A stretch of 58,632 nucleotides of DNA from Escherichia coli (GCF_003334765.1 NZ_QOWT01000025.1), one strand, 5' to 3'; numbered from the stretch's first letter, positions 2,077 to 3,930 are shown. Program-made: numbers and translations. Notes: generated from the sequence alone by a model not told the origin.

Positions 2077-3930
2077 ATGAAAATGACTTTGCCGTTTAAA
2101 CCCCATGTGCTGGCGCTAATTTGCAGTGCCGGGCTTTGTGCCGCCTCTACCGGGCTATATATAAAAAGCCGCACAGTGGAAGCGCCTGTGGAACCGCAAT
2201 CGACACAACTGGCTGTGTCTGACGCTGCCGCGGTTACGTTTCCTGCAACGGTTTCCGCACCTCCCGTAACACCCGCCGTCGTCAAATCCGCATTCAGCAC
2301 TGCACAAATAGATCAATGGGTCGCGCCCGTCGCGCTGTATCCCGACGCCCTACTTTCGCAGGTGCTGATGGCATCAACCTATCCGACAAACGTTGCTCAA
2401 GCAGTGCAATGGTCGCACGATAATCCACTTAAACAAGGCGATGCTGCTATTCAGGCGGTATCTGACCAGCCGTGGGACGCCAGCGTTAAATCACTGGTGG
2501 CCTTTCCACAATTGATGGCATTGATGGGCGAAAACCCGCAATGGGTGCAAAACCTGGGCGATGCTTTTCTGGCCCAGCCGCAGGACGTGATGGACTCGGT
2601 ACAGCGATTGCGGCAACTGGCGCAACAAACCGGCTCGCTGAAGTCATCAACCGAACAGAAAGTTATTACCACAACGAAGAAAGCTGTACCGGTAAAACAG
2701 ACAGTCACGGCACCCGTCATACCATCCAATACAGTTTTAACTGCCAACCCCGTCATTACAGAGCCGGCAACAACCGTCATTTCCATTGAGCCCGCCAATC
2801 CTGATGTGGTCTATATTCCCAACTACAACCCAACCGTGGTTTACGGGAACTGGGCCAATACTGCGTATCCGCCGGTTTATCTGCCACCACCAGCCGGAGA
2901 ACCGTTTGTTGACAGCTTTGTACGCGGATTCGGCTATAGCATGGGCGTTGCTACCACGTACGCACTATTCAGCAGCATCGACTGGGACGACGACGATCAT
3001 GACCATCATCATCATGACAATGATGATTATCATCACCACGATGGCGGTCATCGTGACGGTAATGGCTGGCAACACAACGGCGACAACATCAATATCGACG
3101 TCAACAATTTCAACCGTATCACCGGTGAGCATCTTACTGATAAGAATATGGCATGGCGGCACAATCCAAACTACCGTAATGGTGTGCCCTATCATGATCA
3201 GGATATGGCAAAGCGGTTTCATCAAACCGATGTCAACGGCGGAATGAGCGCCACGCAATTACCTGCCCCAACGCGCGACAGCCAGCGTCAGGCGGCAGCA
3301 AATCAGTTTCAGCAACGAACACACGCCGCACCAGTCATTACACGAGATACCCAACGTCAGGCAGCGGCACAGCGGTTTAATGAAGCTGAACACTATGGGA
3401 GCTATGACGACTTCCACGACTTCAGCCGTCGCCAACCACTGACCCAGCAACAAAAGGACGCCGCTCGTCAGCGTTATCAGTCCGCCTCGCCTGAGCAGCG
3501 CCAGGCAGTTCGCGAGAGAATGCAGACTAACCCGAAGATCCAGCAGCGAAGAGAGGCAGCGCGTGAGCGCATTCAGTCCGCCTCGCCTGAGCAGCGCCAG
3601 GCGGTTCGCGAGAAAATGCAGACTAACCCGCAGAACCAGCAGCGAAGAGACGCAGCGCGTGAGCGTATTCAGTCCGCATCACCAGAGCAGCGCCAGGTGT
3701 TTAAGGAAAAAGTACAGCAGCGCCCACTGAATCAACAGCAACGTGATAACGCCCGCCAGCGTGTTCAATCGGCATCACCTGAACAACGTCAGGTTTTTCG
3801 GGAGAAAGTTCAGGAGAGCCGCCCACAACGTCTAAACGACAGTAACCATACTGTCAGGCTGAATAACGAGCAACGGTCAGCAGTATGCGAACGTCTCTCT
3901 GAACGTGGAGCAAGAAGACTGGAAAGGTAA
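2077..3930 (+). CDS. yacH: DUF3300-family protein YacH, 617 aa, with signal-peptide-like N-terminus, His/Asp-rich low-complexity tract and C-terminal tandem repeats
   Basis: ORF track 2077..3930 (617 aa, MKMTLPFKPHVLALICSAGLCAAS...); length and position between acnB and lpd match K-12 yacH. Confidence 0.9.
   Translation: MKMTLPFKPHVLALICSAGLCAASTGLYIKSRTVEAPVEPQSTQLAVSDAAAVTFPATVSAPPVTPAVVKSAFSTAQIDQWVAPVALYPDALLSQVLMASTYPTNVAQAVQWSHDNPLKQGDAAIQAVSDQPWDASVKSLVAFPQLMALMGENPQWVQNLGDAFLAQPQDVMDSVQRLRQLAQQTGSLKSSTEQKVITTTKKAVPVKQTVTAPVIPSNTVLTANPVITEPATTVISIEPANPDVVYIPNYNPTVVYGNWANTAYPPVYLPPPAGEPFVDSFVRGFGYSMGVATTYALFSSIDWDDDDHDHHHHDNDDYHHHDGGHRDGNGWQHNGDNINIDVNNFNRITGEHLTDKNMAWRHNPNYRNGVPYHDQDMAKRFHQTDVNGGMSATQLPAPTRDSQRQAAANQFQQRTHAAPVITRDTQRQAAAQRFNEAEHYGSYDDFHDFSRRQPLTQQQKDAARQRYQSASPEQRQAVRERMQTNPKIQQRREAARERIQSASPEQRQAVREKMQTNPQNQQRRDAARERIQSASPEQRQVFKEKVQQRPLNQQQRDNARQRVQSASPEQRQVFREKVQESRPQRLNDSNHTVRLNNEQRSAVCERLSERGARRLER

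Follow-up and report, generated by a model that had tools for sequence, protein, structure and literature searches.

The yacH locus and its His/Asp-rich tract

We analysed a stretch of 58,632 nucleotides of Escherichia coli DNA (GCF_003334765.1, NZ_QOWT01000025.1), called the window in the following, and focus here on yacH, a gene for an uncharacterised protein in which histidine and aspartate accumulate in one short tract. In our list of open reading frames (ORFs) of the window, the gene appears on the plus strand at 2077..3930 and encodes 617 amino acids plus a stop; the E. coli RefSeq annotation names it yacH or "DUF3300 domain-containing protein". Over its full length, it is 100% identical in three hits to E. 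coli genomes (H1-H3), and the 281-bp stretch spanning the tract was found with 100% identity in strain MFDpir (hit H33). DUF3300 (PF11737) is the sole Pfam domain of YacH; the match (E 1.5e-78, 263.8 bits) runs from residue 75 to 333 and covers positions 2-227 of the 227 in the model. Together with the annotation, it bears out the name under which a preliminary description of this DNA had presented the protein.

All motifs of the family are present in YacH, i.e., the LYPDxLL helices, VVY[VI]PxYNPxVVYG, the DW turn, VNINVN, and WxHxPxHRxGVxY. An alignment of 56 sequences showed invariant or nearly invariant columns at Y246, P248, Y250, P252, W303, W360, H362, and R367; in the family alignment, W303, W360, R367, and Y372 were at least 90% conserved and H362 was invariant. 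The AlphaFold2 (AF2) model contains a confidently modelled helical domain at residues ~70-200, with predicted local distance difference test (pLDDT) scores above 90 over residues 70-200, followed by a Pro/Tyr-rich beta region. No solved structural relative was found; in a PDB sequence search, neither the complete protein nor the isolated tract retrieved any relatives. Likewise, NCBIfam and PADLOC assigned no family, and an Rfam scan of 1600-4100 gave nothing.

The tract comprises residues 302-337 (DWDDDDHDHHHHDNDDYHHHDGGHRDGNGWQHNGDN) and is encoded at 2980-3087. The preliminary description had reported it at 2983-3090, one codon (3 nt) downstream; translation of that interval gives WDDDD...GDNI, with GAY or CAY in 21 and NAY in 26 of its 36 codons. 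The accumulation of the two residues as such is real. The densest 20-residue window of YacH holds 17 His and Asp residues; when the protein was shuffled 20,000 times, the corresponding maximum averaged 5.8 with a top value of 10, and 17 was never reached. The tract has a net charge of -11 and contains half of the His residues of YacH (10 of 20). The spacer of 34 residues within it contains ten His and eleven Asp, a HHHH run included. Values of pLDDT fall below 50 at residues 310-335, flanked by strands at 298-301 and 338-341, and the tract is predicted to be intrinsically disordered. Off-frame and antisense readings of the GAY/CAY run yield Ile/Val/Met/Thr-rich pseudo-ORFs of 153 (2786-3247, plus strand) and 97 (2965-3258, minus strand) residues, which are artefacts because of this codon run.

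From its signal-peptide-like N-terminus, YacH had been described as apparently exported, and our analysis agrees. Residues 11-29 (VLALICSAGLCAASTGLYI) form the only 19-residue window with a near-zero insertion energy (+0.83; next best +6.9), and residues 9-30 are helical in the AF2 model. DUF3300 relatives carry textbook Sec signal peptides ending in AxA|Q, and the proteins of their DUF2950 partner family likewise have signal peptides; a genomic survey of rhizobia also describes both families as signal-peptide bearing (PMC4653623). By these features YacH is almost certainly exported, and from the single hydrophobic N-terminal segment, the signal peptides of the relatives and the rhizobial survey we infer a periplasmic location of the tract. 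A second transmembrane helix at residues 280-300 (Gly-zipper-like GFGYSMGVATTYALF), which would leave the tract in the cytoplasm, was rejected, with an insertion energy of about +6.9. Orthologues outside Escherichia start with MTLPFKPH, aligned with E. coli Met3 (window 2077-2085); either ATG 2077 or ATG 2083 may thus be the true start in E. coli.

Origin of the tract in the DUF3300 family

The search for homologues in a library of 1.84 billion proteins (50% identity clusters) gave 9,583 related clusters at E <= 1e-3. In the consensus of the region, a Gly-rich hydrophobic stretch ending in LWG-x-C-[D/N]-W is followed by 4 residues, by V-N-I-N-V-N-R-Y-N and later by W-x-H-x-P-x-H-R-x-G-V-x-Y. 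Of 48 parseable homologues, 34 have exactly four residues from the Trp to the Asn-rich strand, as a turn that joins two conserved beta-strands; it follows the pattern [G/H][G/H/R][G/H/N][D/N], with GGGD, GHND, and HGGD as the usual turns. Since most homologues have four residues where E. coli has 34, the tract is an expanded form of this turn. That the expansion took place in an exported DUF3300 protein, within its Enterobacterales lineage, is well supported by the family comparison. YacH thus shares the profile match and all conserved motifs with its family but differs in this spacer, in four C-terminal SASPEQRQ repeats and in the missing DUF2950 partner.

Other low-complexity insertions occur at the identical turn in other DUF3300 lineages (clusters P0237, P0174, P0261, P0240, and P0208), and these are Gly/Tyr-rich, His/Asp/Gly-rich, His-rich, or Cys/Gly-rich. 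Judged from the homologues, the turn site is a general insertion hot spot in DUF3300.

Length variation within E. coli

Variable tract length between strains, which the preliminary description had put forward as a check, was found. Of 5,426 complete genomes, 5,417 gave a match to the 281-bp query that spans the tract, and length spans of +6, +24, and -39 bp occurred among the sampled matches. An allele with two additional residues (DH insertion, L001) is carried by about 543 of the 5426 genomes, one of them O25b:H4-ST131; one with eight additional residues, a 24-bp duplication (L002), by about 80 genomes including 'FDA strain Seattle 1946'; and one lacking 13 residues, a 39-bp deletion (L003, L004), by about 100-130 genomes, roughly 2%. 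At the DNA level these are a duplication of CATGAC, a duplication of a 24-bp unit and a 39-bp deletion between copies of CATCATC. Such duplications and deletions between short direct repeats are the signature of slippage.

We also compared the best 120 E. coli/Shigella proteins from the homology search, a protein-based sample in which frameshifts are invisible. Between W303 and I338 they show about 30 different forms, which are 27-49 residues long. When windows of 36 residues were slid along the protein, that of the tract was the most variable, with 28 variants in 10 lengths versus 4-19 variants in 1-5 lengths elsewhere.

In these respects yacH resembles slippage-generated codon-repeat polymorphisms: its alleles differ by direct-repeat duplications or deletions in multiples of three, and in Salmonella Typhimurium a slip of 8 bp shifts the frame and inactivates the gene (PMC3391293, PMC10048834). 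It differs from them in that its repeat is impure, with mixed synonymous codons, and constrained in composition across genera. Every E. coli length allele examined was a whole-codon change. Unlike phase-variable contingency loci, the E. coli alleles stay in frame, and we hence rejected a phase-variation switch, although this test is partial because the protein sample is blind to frameshifts; the Salmonella deletion was reported as a pseudogene lesion common to several strains and not as a reversible switch (PMC3391293). In a shortened allele (cluster P0122), an upstream frameshift causes the tract to be read in a hydrophobic frame. An IS1A element interrupts yacH in E. coli SW071611 (hit H1, NZ_CM129855.1 4295808-4298438); this interruption and the truncated clusters P0122 and P0123 show that yacH is dispensable.

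Composition of the tract across genera

A scan of genome contigs confirmed at least 11 orthologue loci, a thin taxonomic sampling. The orthologues come from E. albertii, three Kluyvera species, Klebsiella grimontii, an Enterobacter, further Enterobacteriaceae, Scandinavium, and Rahnella victoriana (Yersiniaceae). The preliminary description had reckoned with a tract that might be absent or not conserved in orthologues; we found it at the same site in 15 of 16 Enterobacterales orthologues, with 17-38 residues and a (H+D)/length ratio of 0.46-0.71. Its residues are chiefly Asp, His, Asn, Tyr, and Gly, and the His/Asp richness is kept in Escherichia, Kluyvera, Klebsiella, Enterobacter, Scandinavium, and Rahnella.

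The chemistry of the tract is narrower than its length. The tracts of the 12 orthologues with available DNA contain 118 Asp and no Glu, 33 Asn and no Lys, and 92 His and five Gln, the latter all at one conserved position. In codons, this corresponds to 243 NAY versus 5 NAR in the tracts and 800 NAY versus 1,067 NAR in the remainder of the same genes, a pooled comparison that is inflated by shared ancestry. In the window gene alone, NAY:NAR is 25:1 in the tract versus 68:110 elsewhere (Fisher p = 6e-9). Where the first Asp codons can be aligned, the choice between GAT and GAC is scrambled from genus to genus; residue types were thus retained in spite of turnover at the synonymous sites. Slippage duplicates codons but cannot alone exclude third-position transversions. 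We hence read the pattern as purifying selection on side-chain identity, and the chemistry of the tract looks selected.

Several orthologue tracts (L009, L010, L012, L015, and P0121) end in HGGG or GGWHGGG, e.g., YHDGGWHGGGNNN. These ends presumably resemble HGGGW, the unit by which the prion octarepeat binds Cu(II).

Genomic context, regulation and further features

In the window, yacH lies between acnB (divergent) and lpdA (convergent). In each of the nine enterobacterial loci outside Escherichia, tblastn found a DUF2950 gene directly downstream of yacH, still between acnB and lpdA (L008-L016 at about 5150-6100; L014 at about 1870-2730). Its carriers belong to Kluyvera, Klebsiella, Enterobacter, and further Enterobacteriaceae. 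The order DUF3300 then DUF2950 recurs in metagenome contigs and has been called universal in rhizobia (PMC4653623). No DUF2950 remnant was detected by tblastn in the window, where 70 bp (3931-4000) separate yacH from lpdA, in the other E. coli loci or in E. albertii. Judged from these loci, the loss of the partner is specific to the Escherichia lineage and has no bearing on membership in DUF3300. With DUF2950 lost, E. coli YacH is thus the orphaned half of a conserved, probably periplasmic pair.

A promoter scan revealed no convincing sigma-70 site for yacH, and matches to the consensus sequences of CpxR, marbox, and PdhR stayed at chance level in the 354 bp upstream, a weak negative that depends on the consensus strings used. 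The acnB-yacH intergenic region contains a perfect 13-bp palindrome, GGTGATAATCACC, at 1947-1959, which did not match the tried regulator consensus sequences above chance. Between the convergent yacH and lpdA genes, an A-run, a GCGGC-loop-GCCGC stem and a T-run form a hairpin at 3942-3971. The 55-nt fold at 3931-3985 has a minimum free energy of -19 kcal/mol (z = -2.3); the hairpin is missing from the consensus terminator scan and looks like a bidirectional terminator by its sequence.

Expression of yacH rose 3.9-fold upon NlpE overexpression in a CpxR-dependent manner (PMC9600279). Exposure to protamine or cecropin A lowers its transcription, and its deletion improves protamine survival (PMC9600279). 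In a rob-truncated strain yacH was down (PMC7537768), and its deletion raised the yield of recombinant green fluorescent protein (PMC7376861).

C-terminally, the SASPEQRQ motif recurs at residues 469, 501, 533, and 565, with helices at residues 457-547 in the AF2 model. The C-terminal region (residues 401-617) carries a net charge of +17, opposite in sign to the -11 of the tract. Repeat copy number differs between strains; in many E. coli genomes the gene has one unit fewer and measures 1758 bp. The features of the locus are collected in the table.

Table. Features in and around yacH (positions in the window)
Feature	Position	Strand	Evidence
yacH coding sequence, 617 residues plus stop, DUF3300 protein	2077..3930	+	ORF list, Pfam, RefSeq annotation
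N-terminal hydrophobic segment, residues 11-29, Sec signal peptide or uncleaved signal anchor	2107..2163	+	Insertion energy, AF2 helix 9-30, signal peptides of relatives
Pfam DUF3300 envelope, residues 75-333	2299..3075	+	Pfam; AF2
His/Asp-rich tract, residues 302-337, DWDDDDHDHHHHDNDDYHHHDGGHRDGNGWQHNGDN	2980..3087	+	Translation, shuffle test, charge, pLDDT
Expanded spacer proper, residues 304-337 (34 residues), between Trp303 and the INIDVN strand	2986..3087	+	Family comparison
Asn-rich strand INIDVNNFN (family consensus VNINVNRYN), directly after the tract	3088..3114	+	Alignment; AF2 strand 338-341
WRHNPNYRNGVPY motif (family W-x-H-x-P-x-H-R-x-G-V-x-Y) with invariant His362	3154..3192	+	Alignment
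Four 32-residue (96-bp) basic helical SASPEQRQ repeats	3445..3830	+	Tandem Repeats Finder period 96, AF2, charge
acnB-yacH divergent intergenic region, yacH promoter region	1723..2076	.	Annotation

Discussion

Clusters of His and Asp chelate Ni, Zn, and Cu, as in the His-rich loop of ZnuA, in SlyD or in HypB. Metal or proton binding by the YacH tract is plausible by its composition: in vitro, such a loop should be a chelator of Ni, Zn, Cu, or Co, with a charge that shifts with pH. Our favoured reading is hence that the tract is a functional cation-binding loop, for metal ions and/or protons, to which we assign a probability of roughly 0.45. Replication slippage in NAY codons would have driven the expansion of the spacer from the four-residue turn, which would explain the many in-frame length alleles and the occasional frameshifts. 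Selection would at the same time keep Asp, His, Asn, Tyr, and Gly in the loop and exclude Glu and Lys. The resulting flexible, multidentate ligand might reversibly bind divalent cations, i.e., Zn, Ni, Cu, or Co via His and Asp and possibly Ca or Mg via Asp, Asn, and Gly, and it would titrate with pH. The constraint on composition speaks for the importance of some such cation or pH property. In our view the loop would be a low-affinity appendage to the DUF3300 core, with a capturing or modulatory part to play, and not a dedicated, essential component of metal homeostasis.

His-rich low-complexity loops are an ordinary kind of feature, here found in an uncharacterised protein. The His-rich loop of ZnuA, a cluster A-I substrate-binding protein, is periplasmic, disordered, variable in length and dispensable for the fold, and probably has a lower Zn affinity than the primary site. 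It lies beside a high-affinity site in a Zur-regulated protein linked to an ATP-binding cassette transporter and uses Glu plus Asp. The YacH loop likewise varies in length, is disordered (pLDDT <50), abounds in His and acidic residues and belongs to a protein with an export signal. However, YacH has no solved relative and does not place its loop on a cluster A-I substrate-binding fold beside a metal site; the loop lacks Glu, and yacH has neither a Zur-like box above chance nor a transporter neighbour. SlyD, HypB, UreE, and Hpn carry low-complexity His tracts, with Asp or Gly in addition, that bind Ni and Zn, stick to immobilized-metal affinity columns and vary in length between species; these proteins are cytoplasmic and serve hydrogenase or urease maturation. 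The YacH tract is similarly low in complexity, His/Asp-rich and variable in length, but YacH is exported, is encoded between acnB and lpdA and has no hyp, ure, or slyD-type domains or neighbours. By analogy, the YacH loop would thus work most like the ZnuA loop and the SlyD/HypB/UreE tails, yet it differs from them in its fold, in the lack of Zur control and of a transporter, and in not being cytoplasmic.

Several findings weigh against a cation-binding loop. The adjoining genes acnB and lpdA belong to central metabolism, and nothing related to metals adjoins yacH. Boxes for Fur, Zur, NikR, CueR, and CusR occur in the 354-bp upstream region at chance level only, which is a weak negative that depends on the consensus strings used; the best upstream match to the Zur box was 13/23, and 148 sites across the 58.6-kb window were equal or better. 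The reported phenotypes of yacH concern protamine, recombinant-protein yield and regulation by Rob and Cpx, and not metals. A generic metal ligand would not need Asp to the exclusion of Glu. His is absent from 15 of the 34 four-residue turns, so His was not an ancestral ligand. Within E. coli, the gain of two or eight and the loss of 13 residues are tolerated, and one orthologue, the metagenomic cluster P0127, lacks both the tract and the strand that follows it. In S. Typhimurium 69M and UK-1, an 8-bp deletion in the homologous tract (GATCATCA) frameshifts yacH (PMC10048834, PMC3391293); the gene is a pseudogene in strains 14028s, SL1344, and D23580 as well, though not in LT2, and several of these strains are virulent (PMC3391293). 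Taken together, length tolerance, the loss in one orthologue, the Salmonella pseudogenes and the lack of metal regulation or metal-related neighbours argue against a dedicated role in metal homeostasis. The metal-buffering role suggested in the preliminary description hence finds no support in this context; its statement that no metal role had been established for YacH holds, as we found no paper in the searchable literature that links YacH to metals.

Some of these observations also suit a tract without any specific ligand in vivo, that is, a functionless low-complexity spacer generated by slippage, in which selection would only preserve the frame and keep the composition hydrophilic, non-helical, and turn-forming. 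As the most extreme length polymorphism in the protein, with indels at microhomologies, the tract would fit such a spacer, as would its deletion in P0127, its shortening by 13 residues in about 2% of E. coli genomes, the pseudogenes in several Salmonella strains (PMC3391293) and a gene context without relation to metals. Moreover, expansions at the same site differ in other lineages, being Gly/Tyr-rich in P0237 and Cys/Gly-rich in P0240 and P0208. Slippage alone does not predict the near-complete lack of Glu, Lys, and Gln codons (243 NAY versus 5 NAR) despite saturated T/C turnover across genera; the His/Asp richness kept from Escherichia to Rahnella also speaks against a mere spacer, and we consider it somewhat unlikely.

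Charge offers two further explanations. About ten His residues could protonate upon acidification of the periplasm and shift the tract from -11 to near zero, which would alter its contact with the +17 C-terminal repeats or with a partner. The charges fit such an electrostatic switch, an hdeA gene follows one metagenomic DUF3300-DUF2950 operon, and yacH responds to the Cpx envelope-stress system (PMC9600279). However, the hdeA neighbourhood is a single case, a contact between tract and C-terminus has no structural support, and the acid-resistance genes named in the latter study, ydeE, xylE, alx, and galP, do not include yacH (PMC9600279). We rate a pH switch as improbable. Still less credible to us is an acidic patch that binds polycations in the periplasm, such as cationic antimicrobial peptides, protamine or polyamines. 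It would make use of the -11 net charge and agree with the altered protamine survival of the deletion strain and with the drop in transcription on protamine or cecropin A (PMC9600279). But deletion raises protamine resistance (PMC9600279), which argues against protective sequestration; His would be superfluous for binding polycations, and the phenotype is that of the yacH deletion, of which the tract may or may not be the cause.

DUF3300 usually comes with DUF2950 as its partner; the family is common among Proteobacteria and without a characterised member. None was known in a 2015 study (PMC4653623), our literature searches found none since, and yacH is listed among the genes of the E. coli y-ome (PMC12133099). 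If the loop is inert, it would be a clean example of how a turn becomes a slippage-prone low-complexity insert, and its practical value would lie in a polymorphism for strain typing and a hot spot for yacH inactivation in Salmonella. We may also speculate, at rather long odds, that the His/Asp loop makes enterobacterial YacH an unrecognised periplasmic metal-binding or metal/pH-sensing protein tied to the Cpx response. This would provide the first biochemical handle on the very large DUF3300-DUF2950 family, to which a loop with conserved chemistry and drifting length offers a cheap and direct experimental entry.

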